Origin: a candidate division TM6 bacterium UASB340
Lineage (GTDB): Bacteria > Babelota > Babeliae > Babelales > UASB340
Assembly: GCA_001468925.1 (NCBI GenBank)
Contig: LDIX01000003.1
Coordinates: forward strand, 3,018 to 67,017
Direction: 5' to 3'
DNA: 64,000 nt
Part shown: positions 2,220-14,373 of the stretch, in pieces
Position numbering within the stretch: position 1 is the stretch's first letter
How the letters are laid out: each line of letters begins with the position of its first letter
Notes under the pieces: model-generated
Database searches by the model: none
The model's input: the letters and a program-made list of their open reading frames with translations, nothing else
Told to the model about the DNA's origin: nothing
Made by a program: the position numbers and the translations under genes

Positions 2220-2231
2220 ATTTTGGGTGTC

Positions 2232-2253
2232 ATCCCGGCCACCGAGCCGGGAT
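2232..2253 (+). terminator. GC-rich hairpin after asnS (ATCCCGGC-caccga-GCCGGGAT)
   Basis: Perfect 8-bp GC-rich stem 13 nt after the asnS stop. It is followed by CCAGTCTTATT rather than a clean T-run. Confidence 0.45.
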
Positions 2254-2389
2254 CCAGTCTTATTAAAACTATAACCCAAAGCTTTCGCATTGGGCTACCA
2301 TAATATCGCATTGCATTCGCAACGCTACTCGAATTTTTATAATTTATATATTTTTTACAAATCCAATATTGGCCTGCCAGCCGACCTGT

Positions 2390-5421: not shown

Positions 5422-6126
5422 ATGTTTAATAATCAAAAAATTATACTATTTTTTTCTTTAAATCTTTATTTAATAACATTAACTGGCACGCCAAAAAATA
5501 TGTTAATTAAACAAAAACCTATATTTGAATTAAAAAGTTTTTATACAGAACTTGAAAAAGATTATTTTAAAGCAAATCCTTGGGATTTTATGGATACTGT
5601 TTTTGTTGATAATTTAGAAAATGCAACAACTTTATATGAAAAACTCCCATTCATAATTGCAAATTTACCATTTATTGCGACACTAACCATATTTGCAGGA
5701 GAAATTATTATCAATGAAACAGCTAATGATACCGCAATGGCTACATTAATATTTGGCTTAATAATATCTATCGCCAGCTCACCATTTTTATCAAAAATAA
5801 CTAAATATTTTACATCAGGTAAAGATTACGAACATAAATTAAACAAAGTTCTTAATTGGTTCATGAAAAATTACAATCCAAATTTGAATTTAAATCCCAA
5901 TAATATAAAACAATTCGTTCCCAAAGAATTGCATAGCTTATTTGACGGTATGTACAAAGAATACTTAACACAGGGAAATAATTTTTTAAAAAGTGAAGCA
6001 ACAGTTTCTATAGTTAGCAGAATTATAGAAAGAATTGTTTATGAAATTAAATCAGAAAAATATAGAACACCACCCAAAATTAAAATAATCAATAGCAACT
6101 ATTTATCATCAACACAGTACTCTTAA
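5422..6126 (+). CDS. Hypothetical membrane protein
   Basis: AGGGA RBS. N-terminal hydrophobic segment and two central TM-like stretches (LPFIIANLPFIATLTIFAG, AMATLIFGLIISIASSPFL). No family recognised. Confidence 0.5.
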   Translation: MFNNQKIILFFSLNLYLITLTGTPKNMLIKQKPIFELKSFYTELEKDYFKANPWDFMDTVFVDNLENATTLYEKLPFIIANLPFIATLTIFAGEIIINETANDTAMATLIFGLIISIASSPFLSKITKYFTSGKDYEHKLNKVLNWFMKNYNPNLNLNPNNIKQFVPKELHSLFDGMYKEYLTQGNNFLKSEATVSIVSRIIERIVYEIKSEKYRTPPKIKIINSNYLSSTQYS

Positions 6127-6223
6127 TATGTATATTAATAATAAAAAACTTAAATAATTTATTTTGCCACTCAAATAAGCTAATATAGAGATTAGTAATA
6201 ATTAATGCTAATTTGGGTAGTAA

Positions 6224-7381
6224 ATGAATAACAATAAAAAAAGTAAATTTAAATTATTTTTATTAATATCTATATTAATTCACTTAATATTGCTACTTAT
6301 TTTATTAACTCATGCATTCAAAAAAACAAGACGAGATTTAACTAAAATATTTTTTGTTAACGATAAAAAAGATTTACCCAAAGAAGAAGAGATTAAAAAA
6401 GCTCTCGAAAAGCTCAAAGAAGAAAAAAATCAAATAAAAAAAGAAGAAGAAAAAAAAGAAATAAAATTAGATGAAAGACCTGCAGCTTTAAAGCCAAGGA
6501 AATCAAACTTTGGAAACACAACATATTTTGATGAAGAGCCACAGTTTGTTCCGCCAATATCTGAAAAAATAGCAGAAAAAGCAGAACAAGAAAAATTCGA
6601 TGTAAAATCCGAAGAAGAAAAAATAATAGAACCTGATAAAATTTTAGAAAAAAAAGAAATAGTCGAAAACAAAGAACAAAAAAAAGAGATAACCCAAACA
6701 GATAAAGAATCTAAGTTTATAGAAAAAAAAGAACAGCAAGCAAAAACAACTCTTGAGCAAGATGCTCAAAAACAGGCTAAGCAAGATATAAAAAAAGAGA
6801 TTCAAGAGATAAAGAAACAAGAAGCAAAGCCAAAAGAAGTTAAAAAACAAGAAATAAAAATCACTCAAAATAAACCAAAAGAATCGCTAGAAAAAAAAGA
6901 AGAACTTAGAAACTTTGGCGTTGCGCTTCAAGATAAAAGCCCTGCACCAAAACCTAAAAAAAGTATATTACAATTAACCAAAGGGTTTTTATACAATAAC
7001 AAAGATGAAGGCCAAGATTGGATTAAACGTGATGGCGATGAAAATAAGCGTCCTGATTTTGAAGATTTAAAGCGCATATCTTATACACAACAAATTGCCT
7101 GGCAATTTCAGCAAGAGTCCGGAATTATTTCTTCACATATGTCATACAGCGAAAGAACGCACTTAATGGACGGATATTGTAATGAACCTAATTTACGCAT
7201 AGTTCTTAACAAAAATGGAAGTATTAAACAACTAGAATTAATAAACAGCTCCGGTTCAGTAAGATATGACGATTATATCGTAAAATGCTTTAAAAATGCC
7301 GCACCATTTCCACCAATACCAAATCATTTTAATAGTGATCAATTTGACCTACCTGTAACAATTATAAATCCATTAAGATAA
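6224..7381 (+). CDS. TonB/TolA-like protein: N-terminal TM anchor, long Lys/Glu-rich linker, TonB-C-like domain
   Basis: TM segment FKLFLLISILIHLILLLILL. The C-terminus LRIVLNKNGSIKQLELINSSGSVRYDDYIVKCFKNAAPFPPIP matches the G-x-V...SSG...D...A...F-P-P pattern of TonB C-terminal domains, judged from memory. Confidence 0.55.
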   Translation: MNNNKKSKFKLFLLISILIHLILLLILLTHAFKKTRRDLTKIFFVNDKKDLPKEEEIKKALEKLKEEKNQIKKEEEKKEIKLDERPAALKPRKSNFGNTTYFDEEPQFVPPISEKIAEKAEQEKFDVKSEEEKIIEPDKILEKKEIVENKEQKKEITQTDKESKFIEKKEQQAKTTLEQDAQKQAKQDIKKEIQEIKKQEAKPKEVKKQEIKITQNKPKESLEKKEELRNFGVALQDKSPAPKPKKSILQLTKGFLYNNKDEGQDWIKRDGDENKRPDFEDLKRISYTQQIAWQFQQESGIISSHMSYSERTHLMDGYCNEPNLRIVLNKNGSIKQLELINSSGSVRYDDYIVKCFKNAAPFPPIPNHFNSDQFDLPVTIINPLR

Positions 7382-8028: not shown

Positions 8029-9405
8029 TTGGCAGATGTGGTAATTCTAGGCGCGGGCCTTACAGGTTTATCTACAGCATATCATTTAGAAAAAAATAAT
8101 TTTTTTAATTTTAAAATATTTGAAAAAGAAAATTTGCCAGGTGGTTTATTAAAATCTTTTAAACAAGATGGTTTTACTTTTGATTATACAGGCCATCTAC
8201 TACACATAAGCGATCAATCTTTTTATGATTTTTTAAATGAAACAGCAGGAATAGAAAATTTTTTTATTCAAAATCGCAAATCTTTTGTTTACACACATGA
8301 AAAATTTGTAAATTATCCATTTCAGGCAAATTTATTTGGATTACCTGAAAATATTATATATGAATCTATTGTAGGTTTTATAAATAGAAAAAAACATATT
8401 AAAAATCCAAAAAATTTTTATGATTGGGTGTTAAAATATTTTGGTTCCGGCTTAGGCAAACACTTCTTTTTTCCATACAACACAAAATTATTATCTTATA
8501 ATTTAAAAGAAATATCCCATAGTTGGACCGGAAGATTTGTTCCTCAAACAAATTTAAAAACTATTATTAATTCAGCCATAAAGCCACAAACAGAATCAAG
8601 GATGGGTTATAATAATAAATTTTATTATCCAACTAACGGTGGAATACAATTTTTAATCGATAAATTAAAAAATAAAATCAAAACAAAAATTAATACTAAT
8701 TTTAAAGTAACAAATATAGATTTGAAAAATAAATTATTAATATTTGATAATGGCCACTCAGAAAAATTTAATATTTTAATTTCAACAGCTCCATTAGATA
8801 ATTTATTAAAATTAATAATCGATAAATCAAGCACTAATTTTTCAAACCAGGCAAAAAATTTATTATGCAATTCTGTGATTAATTTTAATTTAGGTTTTAA
8901 TGAAAATAATATTAAAGATAAGCACTGGCTATATTTTCCTGAAAAAAAATATAGCTTTTATCGAATGGGTTTTTGGCAAAATATATGCAAAAATTCTGCA
9001 CCTAAAAATTACAGTTCAATATATGGTGAAACATCATATATACAAAATAAAATAACGAAAAAACAGGTAGATAATTTAACATATAAATCTATAGAACAAG
9101 CTCTAAATTTTTTAAATTTAAAAAAAGAAAATATAGTTACACAAAAAATATTAAATATTGATCATGCTTATGTCATTTATAATAAATGGCGTGAACAAAA
9201 TTTAAAAAAATTACACAATAATTTAAATACTGAATCTATCTATTCAATAGGACGATATGGAGAATGGAAATACTCAAGCATGCAAGAAGCATTTTTAGAT
9301 GGAAAAACTGCAGCAAAAAACATATTAACTGATTTATTATATTCAAACCCACAAAATATTGTGCAAAGGTTAAAAAGTAATGAACAATATAAAAAACTTT
9401 TATGA
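8029..9405 (+). CDS. FAD/NAD(P)-binding oxidoreductase (UDP-galactopyranose mutase / protoporphyrinogen oxidase-like fold)
   Basis: N-terminal VVILGAGLTGLS (GxGxxG) followed by FEKENLPGG. TTG start with a GGAAAAGGG RBS. Substrate unknown. Confidence 0.7.
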   Translation: MADVVILGAGLTGLSTAYHLEKNNFFNFKIFEKENLPGGLLKSFKQDGFTFDYTGHLLHISDQSFYDFLNETAGIENFFIQNRKSFVYTHEKFVNYPFQANLFGLPENIIYESIVGFINRKKHIKNPKNFYDWVLKYFGSGLGKHFFFPYNTKLLSYNLKEISHSWTGRFVPQTNLKTIINSAIKPQTESRMGYNNKFYYPTNGGIQFLIDKLKNKIKTKINTNFKVTNIDLKNKLLIFDNGHSEKFNILISTAPLDNLLKLIIDKSSTNFSNQAKNLLCNSVINFNLGFNENNIKDKHWLYFPEKKYSFYRMGFWQNICKNSAPKNYSSIYGETSYIQNKITKKQVDNLTYKSIEQALNFLNLKKENIVTQKILNIDHAYVIYNKWREQNLKKLHNNLNTESIYSIGRYGEWKYSSMQEAFLDGKTAAKNILTDLLYSNPQNIVQRLKSNEQYKKLL

Positions 9406-10294
9406 AAATATAGATGTTTTGGTTACCGGTGGCGCAGGATTTATAGGATCGCATATAATAAAACAGCTAATATCACTAAACGCTAAAGTTACAGTTCTTG
9501 ATAATTTTTCAACAGGAAATTTAAATAATCTTAAAGATGTAATTTCTAAAGTAAACATAATTTATGGTGACATTACAAATCCATTTACCTGTAAAAAGGC
9601 AACGGAAAATAAAAAAATAGTTTTTCATTTAGCGGCTTTAACATCAGTTGCTTATTCTGTATTATATCCCGAAACTTGCTACAAAATAAATATAACCGGA
9701 ACAAAAAATATTCTCGATGCTTGCAAAATAAATAAAATTTCAAAATTTATATTTTCTTCTTCTGCATCTGTTTATGGAAATAAAAACACTGAATGTAAAG
9801 AAACTGATGAACCAAATCCGGAATCACCATATGCGAAAAGTAAACTGGAAGGTGAAAAGCTTTGTTTTGAATATAATCAAAAATATAATTTAAATACTGC
9901 TATCTTAAGATATTTTAATGTTTACGGTGAAAATCAAAATCCAAATGGTGAATATGCTGCAGTTGTGGCAAAGTTCAAAAATTGCATACAAAATAATACG
10001 CCAATAACAATTTTTGGAACCGGAAAACAAACAAGAGATTTTATTGATGTAAAAGAAGTTGCAAATGCAAATTTACTTATAGCCACAAAAGATAATTTAA
10101 ATAACAAAATTATTAATATTGCAACAGGAAAAAGCATCAGTTTACTAGAATTGATAAATCTATTGGAAGCTGATTTAAACAAAAAAGCTAAATCAATAGA
10201 ATTTTTGCCGTCACGAGCAGGCGACATAATCCATTCAAGTGCCAATTGCCAAAAATACAAAAATATAATAAAAGATAATGTATCTTCATTTTAA
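9380..10294 (+). CDS. NAD-dependent nucleotide-sugar epimerase/dehydratase (extended SDR)
   Basis: VLVTGGAGFIGSH Rossmann motif and the YAKSK (YxxxK) catalytic motif. Overlaps the upstream gene by 26 nt. Confidence 0.85.
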   Translation: MNNIKNFYENIDVLVTGGAGFIGSHIIKQLISLNAKVTVLDNFSTGNLNNLKDVISKVNIIYGDITNPFTCKKATENKKIVFHLAALTSVAYSVLYPETCYKINITGTKNILDACKINKISKFIFSSSASVYGNKNTECKETDEPNPESPYAKSKLEGEKLCFEYNQKYNLNTAILRYFNVYGENQNPNGEYAAVVAKFKNCIQNNTPITIFGTGKQTRDFIDVKEVANANLLIATKDNLNNKIINIATGKSISLLELINLLEADLNKKAKSIEFLPSRAGDIIHSSANCQKYKNIIKDNVSSF

Positions 10295-10381
10295 GCCGAA
10301 GTGGCGGAATTGGCAGACGCGCTAGATTCAGGGTCTAGTCTTTGAAAAAAGGTAGGGGTTCAACTCCCCTCTTCGGCACCA
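10295..10381 (+). tRNA. tRNA-Leu (anticodon CAG)
   Basis: GCCGAAGTGGCGGAATTGGCAGACGCGCTAGATTCAGGGTCTAGTCTTTGAAAAAAGGTAGGGGTTCAACTCCCCTCTTCGGCACCA. Perfect acceptor stem GCCGAAG/CTTCGGC, long variable arm, encoded CCA. It starts the nucleotide after the epimerase TAA. Confidence 0.92.
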
Positions 10382-10396
10382 GTCTTCGCCCTATAG

Positions 10397-10700
10397 CCCA
10401 GCGCATATCCAGCCTTCGCCGAGGCTACGGCGGACAGGCGCACAGGGCTACCTCAAAATCGCCCGCTCATGCAGGCTCAAAAAACAAAAATTTAATATTA
10501 ATTTGCAAGAATTGTATTTTTGTTTTCAAAAAATTTGATAATAAAGCTTTGCATACAAATAGTTACTTTTTATATAAGATTACACAATTAATGTTTGGTT
10601 TATAGAATATTACTTACATATAAAAATAATTATTCATCATAATGTCTCTGAGCCTGCATAAGCAGGCGGCTTTAGGGTAGCCCTGTGCGTATGCACTGGG
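10397..10700. repeat. MITE-like composite element: GC-rich terminal inverted repeats around a 169-bp AT-rich core
   Basis: Arm 10439..10479 matches the reverse complement of arm 10649..10689 at 34/41 positions by my hand alignment. The outer flanks CCCAGCGCATA (10397-) and the reverse complement of 10690-10700 (CCCAGTGCATA) extend the repeat. The left arm carries an extra 31-nt hairpin module. Confidence 0.55.
10410..10433 (+). repeat. GC-rich hairpin, copy 4 (CAGCC-UUC-GCC-GA-GGC-UAC-GGCGG)
   Basis: Near-identical to the tRNA-Ala(UGC) trailer: CCAGCCUUCGCCGAGGCUACGGCGGACAGG versus CCAUACUUCGCCAAGGCUAUGUGUGGCGGACCAG. Confidence 0.55.
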
Positions 10701-10817
10701 AATAATACAAATATGACATACAGGATGTTTGATTTTCCATATTAAACCATTATAATTTATAATAATCTTAGTCTAAAAGACTAAAAAAATTTAAATAAAA
10801 AATTTAGGGTTAAAAAC

Positions 10818-11951
10818 ATGGCAAAAAGAGATTATTACGAAATTTTGGGCGTTTCAAAAACCGCCAATAAAGAAGAAATTAAAAAAGCTTACAGGCAATT
10901 AGCCATAAAATATCATCCGGATAAAAATCCTGATAATAAAGAAGCTGAAGAAAAATTTAAAGAAGCTAGTGAAGCCTATGAAGTTCTTTCAAATGACGAA
11001 AAAAGAAAAAAATATGATCAATTTGGTCATGCCGGAATGCAAGGTGGATCAGATTTCCATGAATATGGAGGATTTGAAGATATTTTTTCAAATTTTGGAG
11101 ATATATTTTCAGATTTATTTGGTGCAAGCGCCGGTGGACGTAAACAACAACGCAGTAAAACCGGACTTACTCCGCAACGCGGCCATGATTTATCATATAA
11201 TATAGAAATAACTTTAACCGAGTCATATTTGGGAACCAAAAAAGATATTTCCATTTACCATCATACAAGTTGTGAAACTTGTAACGGTTCAGGATGTAAA
11301 GCCGGTACAAAACCGGAAAAATGTTCCCATTGTAACGGTACCGGCGCAGTAAATTTCAGGCAAGGCTTTTTTTCATTCGCTCAGCCATGTAATTATTGCA
11401 AAGGCGAAGGATTTACAATTAAATCGCCATGTCCAACATGTAAGGGCCAATCAAGAGTTCAAAAGCGTGACACCCTAACCATAAATATTCCTGCCGGAAT
11501 TTATAATGGTGCAGAATTAAGAGTTAAAGGTCGCGGTGATGCCGGAGTATTTGGTGGAACATCCGGAGATCTTTATCTTCATGTAACGGTACAAGATGAC
11601 AAAAAATTTTGGCGCAAAAATAACGACTTAATAACTTATTTAAATTTAACATATCCACAATTAGTTTTAGGCTGTCAGGTGGAAGTTGAAACTTTAGATG
11701 GTCAAAAACATTTAATTAAAATACCAAAAGGTTGTGCCGTTGGCCAAGAAATTATGTTACCCGGAAAAGGTTTTCCGGTTCCCGGAAGTTTATCCAGAGG
11801 TAACTTAATAATTATTACGAAATGCCACATTCCAACAAAATTACCAGCCAAAGCCAAAGAATTATTGTTAGAATATGCTGAAAAAATTGGTAATGAAACA
11901 AGTGATTCCAAGTCAGGGATTTCAGGATTTTTTAAAAAATTTTTGGGATAA
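10818..11951 (+). CDS. dnaJ: molecular chaperone DnaJ
   Basis: J-domain (YYEILGV...KYHPDKNP), G/F-rich region, four CxxCxGxG zinc-finger repeats, and a C-terminal substrate-binding domain. Confidence 0.95.
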
Positions 11952-14302: not shown

Positions 14303-14349
14303 CATACTTCGCGCTCAACTTATTTAAATATCACTTTTTCTGGCCATGC

Positions 14350-14373
14350 CATACGAAGCTTTAGCGAAGTATG
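14350..14373 (-). repeat. GC-rich trailer hairpin, copy 5 (identical 24-mer to 2718..2741)
   Basis: CATACGAAGCTTTAGCGAAGTATG abuts and overlaps the CCA of tRNA-Leu(UAA). Confidence 0.65.

Follow-up and report, generated by a model that had tools for sequence, protein, structure and literature searches.

A probable decayed REPtron-type transposase unit between tRNA-Leu(CAG) and dnaJ of a candidate division TM6 bacterium

Locus and element architecture

The 64,000-nucleotide stretch of contig LDIX01000003.1 analyzed here (the window) derives from the candidate division TM6 bacterium UASB340 and has a GC content of 28.6%, rising to 53% in the block between a tRNA-Leu(CAG) gene and dnaJ. This block holds an inverted-repeat element (10397-10700) that is very probably a decayed REPtron-type unit, in which an internally deleted Y1 transposase gene still lies between its two repetitive extragenic palindrome (REP) arms, in a form resembling REPINs (REP doublets folding as hairpins) or palindrome-associated transposable elements (PATEs). 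A first-pass annotation had regarded it as a non-autonomous mobile element or REP-like mosaic, an interpretation that is supported here with corrections. The locus comprises the following features.

9380-10294: epimerase gene, the upstream neighbor of tRNA-Leu(CAG)
10295-10381, plus strand: tRNA-Leu(CAG) (ARAGORN; Rfam tRNA model, 53 bits), whose 3' end the element abuts
10379-10396, plus strand: CCAGTCTTCGCCCTATAG, where the outer flank of the REP arm follows on from a tRNA-trailer half-hairpin (5' half, CCA-GYC-KTCGC)
10397-10452, plus strand: left REP, with stem CCCAGCGC (10397-10404) pairing with GCACAGGG (10440-10447) and foot CTAC(C) at 10448-10452
10408-10438, plus strand: nested hairpin module of 31 nt, TCCAGCCTTCGCCGAGGCTACGGCGGACAGG, of the tRNA-trailer family
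10461-10476, plus strand: second hairpin of the left arm, GCCCGC-TCAT-GCAGGC, on the gene-proximal side
10480-10648, minus strand: core, a putative internally deleted and point-mutated Y1 transposase gene remnant
10649-10700, minus strand: right arm, with its second hairpin GCCTGC-ATAA-GCAGGC at 10652-10667
10677-10700: right REP, with GTAG foot at 10677-10680 (plus strand) and stem CCCTGTGC (10681-10688) pairing with GCACTGGG (10693-10700)
10818-11951: dnaJ, the downstream neighbor of the element

The element begins 16 nt past the end of tRNA-Leu(CAG), as previously annotated, and consists of two GC-rich inverted repeats (10397-10479 and 10649-10700) bracketing a core of 169 bp with 17% GC. 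The left-arm segment 10439-10479 agrees with the reverse complement of 10649-10689 in 35 of 41 positions, correcting the earlier hand count of 34, and all six mismatches are transitions. The similarity continues outward as originally described, with CCCAGCGCATA at 10397-10407 facing CCCAGTGCATA, the reverse complement of 10690-10700, and a repeat search traces the inverted repeat over 66 nt in all (73% identity). The small hairpin reported within each arm is likewise present. A 14-mer, CGCACAGGGCTACC, occurs in both arms and, with two mismatches, at 2286, against an expectation of 0.00 from 100 shuffles. RNA fold prediction, proposed in the first-pass annotation as a check, gave a strong hairpin for positions 10379-10710 (332 nt) on either strand (z = -10.2 on the plus strand and -10.4 on the minus strand).

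The long terminal inverted repeats and small size would also suit a classical miniature inverted-repeat transposable element (MITE), mobilized by a DDE transposase and bounded by a target-site duplication. However, no such duplication was found at the element ends, whose flanks (CTATAG on the left and AATAATAC on the right) contain no direct repeat; related arms flank a Y1/HUH gene instead of a DDE gene, and tblastn detected no transposase with a significant match in the window. Because the target-site duplication is missing, the element is not regarded as a DDE-type MITE, an origin that would be highly improbable, and the term MITE applies only loosely, to a non-autonomous copy derived by deletion.

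The DnaJ sequence places the window in a metagenome-assembled genome (MAG) of Dependentiae/Babeliales, the nearest other species showing at most 77% DnaJ identity. Three same-species assemblies were found through the 90% DnaJ cluster. Two MAGs of this species, L127 and L128, show 94-97% identity to the window over approximately 20 kb; at the orthologous site, both carry the element, which differs there by six substitutions and lacks precisely the 31 nt of 10408-10438.

The arms as REP sequences

In an alignment of 18 arms, CTAC is invariant (18/18) and lies directly 3' of an imperfect hairpin of 8-9 bp, which has a stem base of three G-C pairs, mismatches at conserved positions, and a loop of 4 nt; next come a spacer and another hairpin, of 6-7 bp. 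On the other strand, the CTAC of the left arm (10448-10451) reads as GTAG at the hairpin foot. Canonical REPs are defined by a 5' GT[AG]G at this position (PMC6006769), a definition also given in PMC3733652. Because the invariant CTAC/GTAG foot fits the published definition, the arms are classified, from their sequence, as canonical REPs; as imperfect, GC-rich palindromes, they also fall within the 20-40 nt expected of such repeats. Profile searches with nhmmer recovered the left REP at E = 1.6e-11, although its hairpin loop is split by the 31-nt module, and the right arm at E = 4.4e-16.

Covariation lends modest support, the arms being too conserved to yield more: stem positions are paired in 84% of cells compared with 82% in shuffles (82% for helix 1 and 87% for helix 2, the second hairpin), and one or two pairs covary, most clearly columns 7-19 (AU 9, GC 7). 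Fully compensated stem variants are found in locus L143. The arms represent a REP family distinct from the tRNA-trailer hairpins. The proposal that the element is built from the same GC-rich modules as the tRNA trailers thus holds for the nested 31-nt module only, not for the arms.

The core as a transposase-gene relic

The core had been described as AT-rich and without a convincing open reading frame (ORF); its base composition was correctly noted, but a transposase gene remnant lies within it. The minus strand of the core (reverse complement of 10639-10488) aligns with the 5' untranslated region (UTR) and first codons of an intact gene in L130 (9920-10072), a locus of the same species. The local alignment score is 71, compared with 16.1±2.2 (maximum 24) in 500 shuffles, none of which reached it, and with 20 in the opposite orientation. 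Three segments can be distinguished.

~10639-10574, minus strand: 5'UTR/promoter region
10573-10517, minus strand: codons 1-19, with ATG mutated to ATA and a Trp codon mutated to a stop
~10510-10480, minus strand: 3' end of the gene, beside the left arm

In tblastn, the core translation IKSNYLYAKLYYQIF*KQK aligns with MKNNHVFSKLYYHVIWKTK, and the peptide fits the start of the homologs, MK(S/N)NHV(Y/F)SKLYYH(I/V)(V/I)WKTK. A global alignment shows the element to be colinear with the L130 unit throughout (82% identity across 328 columns), except for the missing middle of the gene; the core keeps roughly the first 20-29 transposase codons plus the 5'UTR. The HUH motif and catalytic Tyr are found in the genes of relatives, in codons that the window copy lacks, and tblastn of the whole window detected no intact Y1 gene. 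Judged from these alignments, the core is a gutted, non-autonomous remnant of a Y1 transposase gene.

An open frame of 87 amino acids (10342-10605) spans part of this region and might be taken as a protein-coding gene. It begins inside tRNA-Leu, continues across the REP arm and then antisense to the transposase relic, and is destroyed by the 31-nt indel in L127 and L128. We consider the ORF an artefact, as did the first-pass annotation, because its start is internal to the tRNA gene and an indel of 31 nt, not a multiple of three, breaks the frame; that the region encodes this protein can be virtually dismissed. This settles the annotation: the ORF is not a real gene, and the intergenic block is a transposase pseudogene bounded by REPs.

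Intact units in relatives and a deletion series

A genome collection was scanned with a 17-base degenerate arm pattern, and the matches listed came mostly from GC-rich genomes. Among these matches, arm copies in low-GC genomes belonged to 'bacterium CSMAG_1558' (L021, L061, and L110), TM6 bacterium GW2011_GWF2_28_16 (L123), and L060, where the arms again formed inverted pairs. The cognate enzyme that the first-pass annotation had proposed to seek, either an IS200/IS605 TnpA or a REP-associated tyrosine transposase (RAYT), was found as intact Y1 genes between arms at three loci.

L021: arms 5850-5914 and 6376-6449, gene 5990-6367, an intact ORF of 125 amino acids
L125 (TM6 GW2011_GWF2_28_16): arms 9857-9911 and 10394-10450, gene 10001-10387
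L130 (same species as the window): arms around gene 10001-10369

The three transposases measure 125-128 amino acids. Homologs of the L021 ORF include P0123, from the TM6 genome, and the P0122/P0242 cluster, from the window's species, and both are flanked by inverted arms (L125 and L130, respectively). The transposase cluster P0242 (RAYT) comes from the same three assemblies as DnaJ cluster P0241, with one gene in each, so the window's species carries an intact transposase copy elsewhere in its genome. At L130 9986-10003, the transposase start codon reads ACG in same-species MAGs, and the annotated start lies at a downstream GTG, giving 122 instead of 127 amino acids (P0122); owing to this ACG, even the 'intact' copy may be decaying in some strains.

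Gene-depleted relatives of these units were also identified. L110 is an independent deletion derivative in which amino acids 1-7 are joined to amino acids 89-125 (81% identity, E = 3.5e-16), L061 is a doublet with only about 55 bp between its arms, and L060 is a gene-less inverted arm pair. The series accordingly extends from intact units (L021, L125, and L130) through cores of 206 bp (L110) and 169 bp (window) to the 55-bp spacer of L061, with unlike deletion endpoints in the window and L110. It illustrates a route by which a unit carrying a gene can give rise to REPIN-like doublets.

The nested 31-nt module and tRNA trailers

The interruption of the left arm, described earlier as a 31-nt insertion representing one copy of the tRNA-trailer hairpin, is a true indel: it is exactly absent from L127 and L128, without any duplication, and it resembles the window's tRNA trailers (84% over 19 nt at 2601-2619 and 71% over 31 nt at 2712-2742). 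In the intact L130 unit, the left arm contains an identical module (31/31) at the same REP-loop position, and the right arm contains a copy with one mismatch (30/30, one mismatch). Because the module is identical in L130 while the surrounding arms are only about 80% identical between window and L130, the comparison favors a recent gain in the window lineage, through insertion or a conversion tract of at most 41 nt, over ancient co-inheritance.

The trailers themselves share a common design. Of 19 tRNA genes from six Dependentiae loci, 12 encode a CCA that opens a stem, CCA-NNN...N'N'N'-TGG, in which NNN covaries (TAC/GTA, GCC/GGC, and TCC/GGA); the hairpin consensus is CCA-NNN-T[TA]CGC..GC-T[TA]CG-N'N'N'-TGG, followed by CA[GT]GCCAG. 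Since NNN and N'N'N' covary, the 3' CCA would be base-paired in the tRNA precursor, and the trailer hairpin may serve Dependentiae as a characteristic signal for processing or termination. Two further trailer modules of approximately 31 nt (reverse complement CGCCGTCGCATAAAGCTATGGCGGACAAGTC) are present in L127 and L128 and absent from the window, inserted just 5' of (C)GCACnnGGCT, as is the module at 10408-10438.

2361-2431, 2585-2616, 2700-2739, and 14330-14371, minus strand: trailer hairpins of the window, with others in L001, L003, L007, L123, and L146
~2409 and ~2600 (compared with L127 2100-2400): positions of the L127/L128-only modules, in the trailers of tRNA-Ala(CGC) and tRNA-Ala(UGC)

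The tRNA-Leu(CAG) trailer of the window's species retains only its 5' half before the REP arm, which suggests, from the sequence of this junction, that the REP-flanked unit landed in the trailer. In L060, both arms (1277-1343 and 1493-1550) carry a different nested hairpin of about 21 nt (AAAGCCCTATGGGGCATTTTG) in the REP loop. As this hairpin sits where the window module does, nested insertions seem to recur at the REP loop.

A broader and rather doubtful proposal is that the ~31-nt hairpins are mobile single-stranded DNA (ssDNA) mini-elements, moved by the Y1 enzyme of subclass 1.2 discussed below, which would form most Dependentiae tRNA 3' trailers, insert 5' of (C)GCACnnGGCT in trailer and REP loops, and vary between strains, with the trailer stem sequestering the encoded CCA. 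If this were true, a domesticated transposase would continually remodel tRNA 3' trailers and gene ends in reduced genomes, and subclass 1.2, thought to be REP-less, would run a genuine REP system from Dependentiae to Acidobacteriota. The strain-level presence or absence of the 31-nt hairpins offers a handle on whether the system is still active.

Additional arm copies and mobility

Whether the element is single-copy was raised in the first-pass annotation; related arms do occur elsewhere, including a third arm in the window at 2275, further solo arms in L130 and L123, and the inverted pairs of L110, L061, and L060. Approximately 20 kb of L130 contains three REP cores, with one extra solo arm 2.1 kb from the gene. 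No second doublet exists within the 64-kb window, where the third arm belongs to a separate family member.

2224-2340, plus strand: hairpin X (GTCATCCCGG-N8-CCGGGAT), then CCAGTCTT, then a decayed solo REP arm
At 2275, plus strand: solo REP arm of subfamily B, CCCAAAGC-TTTC-GCATTGGG-CTACC, with second hairpin GCATTGC-ATTC-GCAACGC (nhmmer E = 2.6e-5)

The outer flank of the element, CCAGTCTT..CTAT.GCCC, is common to two other arms, at window 2256 and at ~10483 of L130 (reverse complement). In L127 and L128 (L127 2032-2082), a canonical intrinsic terminator, AAAAAAGCCCAGAAAATTTTTCTGGGCTTTTTTT, stands in place of window 2224-2362, after an asnS-like ORF (834-2219), which on alignment is a replacement polymorphism within one species. 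The composite of hairpin X and arm also occurs in L150 and beside the L130 transposase unit; similarity of hairpin X plus CCAGTCTT to a 3' fragment of tRNA-Cys is confined to the T-stem and CCA-GTCTT. Orthology of the solo arm at 2275 with L150 was ruled out, given that L150 contains no asnS match. Relatives of hairpin X with covarying stems were observed in L021 (7270-7310) and L007 (5823-5905).

These copies bear on the possibility that the element is an active REPIN- or MITE-like miniature, which lost its gene before transposing to the tRNA-Leu flank and is still copied in trans. Gene-less inverted doublets elsewhere (L061, with its 55-bp spacer, and L060), the presence or absence of related modules between strains, indicative of a dynamic system, and the folding of the whole element into one long, REPIN-like hairpin are all consistent with it. 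However, the element occupies one and the same site in 3/3 genomes compared, the deletion endpoints of the window and L110 differ, as expected from independent in-place decay, and the identity to the species' intact unit is only about 82%, so the duplication is old. Furthermore, a search of the window plus approximately 40 kb of same-species loci revealed no other copy sharing the element's deletion junction. For this last reason, there is no evidence that the window copy moved as a miniature element, and it may have decayed in place; an active miniature is accordingly considered unlikely.

Enzyme class

The L021 gene matches Pfam Y1_Tnp (E = 1e-27) and scores 83 bits with the NCBIfam model transpos_IS200 (NF033573; cutoff 55), which identifies it as IS200-type. 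The proteins of the relatives contain the motifs [DN]H[VI]H, WQ, and Y---Q--HH, with NHVH or DHIH plus YILNQ in P0121-P0123. The WQ motif appears as AWQEGYG or SWQQGYG in all Dependentiae homologs, and its residues W94/Q95 have been implicated in GTAG recognition (PMC6006769). The best solved relatives are the ISDra2 and IS608 TnpA structures, and E. coli TnpA-REP was absent from the PDB matches at E<=1. The motif Y---Q--HH differs from the Y---NP signature of class 2.

Quentin et al. (2018, PMC6006769) described TnpAY1 subclass 1.2 as low-copy, without typical IS200 ends, without REPs, and mostly cyanobacterial or Bacteroidetes. Compared with Table 1 of that study, the Dependentiae enzymes share the signature DH[IV]H, WQ, and Y---Q--HH, the short core, and the low copy number, but not the absence of REPs, since REPs flank the gene in L021, L125, L130, L139, and L156. 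A Bacteroidetes homolog (Cruoricaptor) has no REPs, and its gene overlaps the stop of the upstream gene.

The association extends to GC-rich metagenome and Acidobacteriota-like contigs, in which subclass 1.2-type genes have flanking REP doublets with the core CCCGGCGC-TTCC-GCACCGGG-CTAC and the same bipartite arm. Homologous arms are abundant in a Thermoanaerobaculaceae MAG. Among the matches listed, Thermoanaerobaculia MAGs (L023-L108), L139, and L156 contain many copies of a homologous arm, GCCCGGCGC-TTCC-GCACCGGGC-TACC-GAAACGT, plus a variable second hairpin, and subclass 1.2-type Y1 genes lie near arms in L063, L086, L139, and L156. The GC-rich REP hairpin is about 75% identical to the Dependentiae hairpin, with proteins only 33-38% identical.

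A Y1 gene between inverted REPs, the defining arrangement of a REPtron, is present in L130, L125, and L021, and the window arms hold the gene remnant only. The system is a REPtron in architecture, with a Y1 enzyme that its motifs place in a subclass not earlier tied to REPs. We therefore class it as working like a REP/RAYT system, without claiming class 2 RAYT membership.

Proposed history of the element and points against it

In the decayed-REPtron interpretation, the ancestral unit would have been a small HUH/Y1 ssDNA transposase gene of the IS200/RAYT superfamily between two inverted arms of approximately 55 bp. An internal deletion would have removed most of the gene, roughly from codon 20-30 to near the stop, and point mutations would then have inactivated the remaining stub, leaving the arms and 169 bp of 5'UTR and stub. 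By analogy with IS200/IS605 TnpA and E. coli TnpA-REP, the Y1 enzyme would bind REP hairpins on single-stranded DNA at the replication fork, read the GTAG foot, and cut and rejoin the DNA without target duplication. The window copy could presumably be processed only in trans, by the species' intact copy (the P0122/P0242 cluster). The unit would sit inside the broken 3' trailer hairpin of tRNA-Leu(CAG), and the 31-nt module would be a recent strain-level gain, either inserted or copied by very short gene conversion out of the intact unit's arms, the direction being deduced from the comparison with L130.

Several observations weigh against this interpretation. Classical REPs are present in many dispersed extragenic copies per genome, more than 100. 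The 64-kb window contains only three REP cores, namely the two arms and the solo arm at 2275, far below REP-rich genomes. The lack, in the loci compared, of a second copy with the window's deletion junction leaves the mobility of this copy unsupported. The enzyme scores only 29.4 bits with the NCBIfam model REP_Tyr_transpos (NF047646; cutoff 80), and as IS200-type instead, and its subclass 1.2 was reported to be REP-less (PMC6006769). Additionally, conservation at the site is unexpectedly high for a relic: the core differs from L127 by one substitution in 169 nt, when approximately 6-7 would be expected at 4% divergence, and 10165-10964 is 98.9% identical to L127, compared with 94-97% for the flanking genes. 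This hints at constraint, in an exapted role, or at a local recombination tract rather than pure junk.

Such conservation would fit an inverted repeat that is, or has become, a host cis-element, such as a tRNA-Leu/dnaJ terminator or insulator or a structured RNA, its transposon ancestry being incidental. In the same direction, the REP-bearing segment 2224-2362 occupies the place of the L127/L128 intrinsic terminator, and roles of REPs in termination and mRNA stability are described in PMC3733652. Against this, an Rfam search at both thresholds returned nothing above threshold except tRNA, the remainder being sub-threshold long-hairpin miRNA models; a terminator scan scored no terminator-like site within the element, and, on the plus strand of the window, no T-run follows either arm hairpin. 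The element is also absent from relatives at 69-77% DnaJ identity (L001, L006, and L007), and L127 and L128 are too close to the window to prove constraint. We regard a cis-element as a distinctly improbable explanation and retain a decayed REPtron-type unit as the favored one.

Orthologous sites and neighboring features

More distant relatives clarify the history of the site. L001 (DnaJ 74%) and L006 (77%) keep the epimerase-dnaJ synteny and lack both tRNA-Leu and the element, while in L007 (69%) the two genes are separated by tRNA-Leu(CAG), whose trailer hairpin is intact, and by an unrelated palindrome downstream of it. Because L007 has the tRNA without the element and L001 and L006 have neither, tRNA-Leu(CAG) is taken, from this synteny, to be ancestral at the site and the element to be lineage-specific. 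A first reading of L001, in which a block of about 455 bp including tRNA-Leu had been inserted into the epimerase 3' end, was dropped, as L007 has the tRNA at the site; a deletion in L001 and L006 appears more parsimonious than insertion of the tRNA-Leu block.

The epimerase ORF of L001 ends ...KNLRFDFPF*, running through DNA homologous to non-coding window positions 10727-10750. On comparison of window 10727-10757 with the epimerase end at L001 5910-5939, the deletion that removed tRNA-Leu in L001 appears to have fused the epimerase to former intergenic DNA and created a new C-terminus. A promoter-like site, TTGATT-16-TATAAT, was noted at 10729-10756. Additionally, several Dependentiae have a conserved inverted repeat, CTTAGTC-N3-5-GACTAAG, approximately 35-50 nt before the start of dnaJ; it is a candidate heat-shock operator that does not correspond to the CIRCE (controlling inverted repeat of chaperone expression) consensus.

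Window 10767-10786; L001 ~5945-5967; L003 ~250-272; L006 ~1648-1670: copies of CTTAGTC-N3-5-GACTAAG

Comparison with known systems

REP/RAYT-type selfish DNA is a known kind; what distinguishes this case is the Dependentiae host, the enzyme subclass, and the strain-variable nested hairpins. The findings extend REP/RAYT-type systems to Dependentiae (TM6), whose genomes are AT-rich, reduced, and host-associated, and a full-text literature search that included the phylum name found no relevant report for this phylum. They also link canonical GTAG REPs to Y1 subclass 1.2, reported as REP-less, and the bipartite arm recurs in distant GC-rich bacteria.

The closest match is the REPtron of the E. coli yafM type, with which the system shares a Y1/HUH gene between inverted imperfect palindromes, a GT[AG]G foot, three G-C pairs at the stem base, low gene copy number, intergenic solo and paired REPs, and no target duplication. 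It differs in the subclass 1.2 motif Y---Q--HH instead of the class 2 Y---NP, in a score below the NCBIfam RAYT cutoff, in a second hairpin per arm, in a REP density of 3 per 64 kb, in its AT-rich Dependentiae host, and in that the window copy is a pseudogene. REPINs of Pseudomonas fluorescens SBW25 (PMC3116915) likewise consist of inverted REPs that fold as one long hairpin and presumably rely on a single-copy Y1 enzyme; the window element, in contrast, has a 169-bp gene-remnant spacer instead of a short anonymous one, and no population of near-identical copies was seen.

With IS200/IS605 elements and PATEs, the system shares the transposase fold and catalytic motifs, ssDNA hairpin ends, internal-deletion derivatives, and the lack of target-site duplications. 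Unlike IS200/IS605 (subclass 1.1), its ends are inverted copies with a GTAG foot, not distinct left and right subterminal hairpins, its copies are few and diverged (82%) instead of many and near-identical, and the motifs are WQ and Y---Q--HH, not W[TS] and Y[IV]ENQ. The signature DH[IV]H, WQ, and YIxNQxxHH, the short core, and the low copy number agree with TnpAY1 subclass 1.2 (PMC6006769), from whose described members it is distinguished by canonical GTAG REPs flanking the gene and by Dependentiae proteins without a C-terminal tail.

PMC3733652 describes composite terminal inverted repeats at the RAYT flanks of P. putida and P. fluorescens, each joining a degenerate GTAG REP to an unrelated stem-loop. 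Like the present arms, they are bipartite and inverted around the Y1 gene, with a REP and a second stem-loop, although the sequences, host, and Y1 subclass are others. Finally, the bacterial interspersed mosaic elements of enterobacteria resemble the window element as intergenic mosaics of GC-rich hairpin modules, nested and alternating in orientation, whereas the mosaic here forms no regular REP arrays and includes modules of the tRNA-trailer type.

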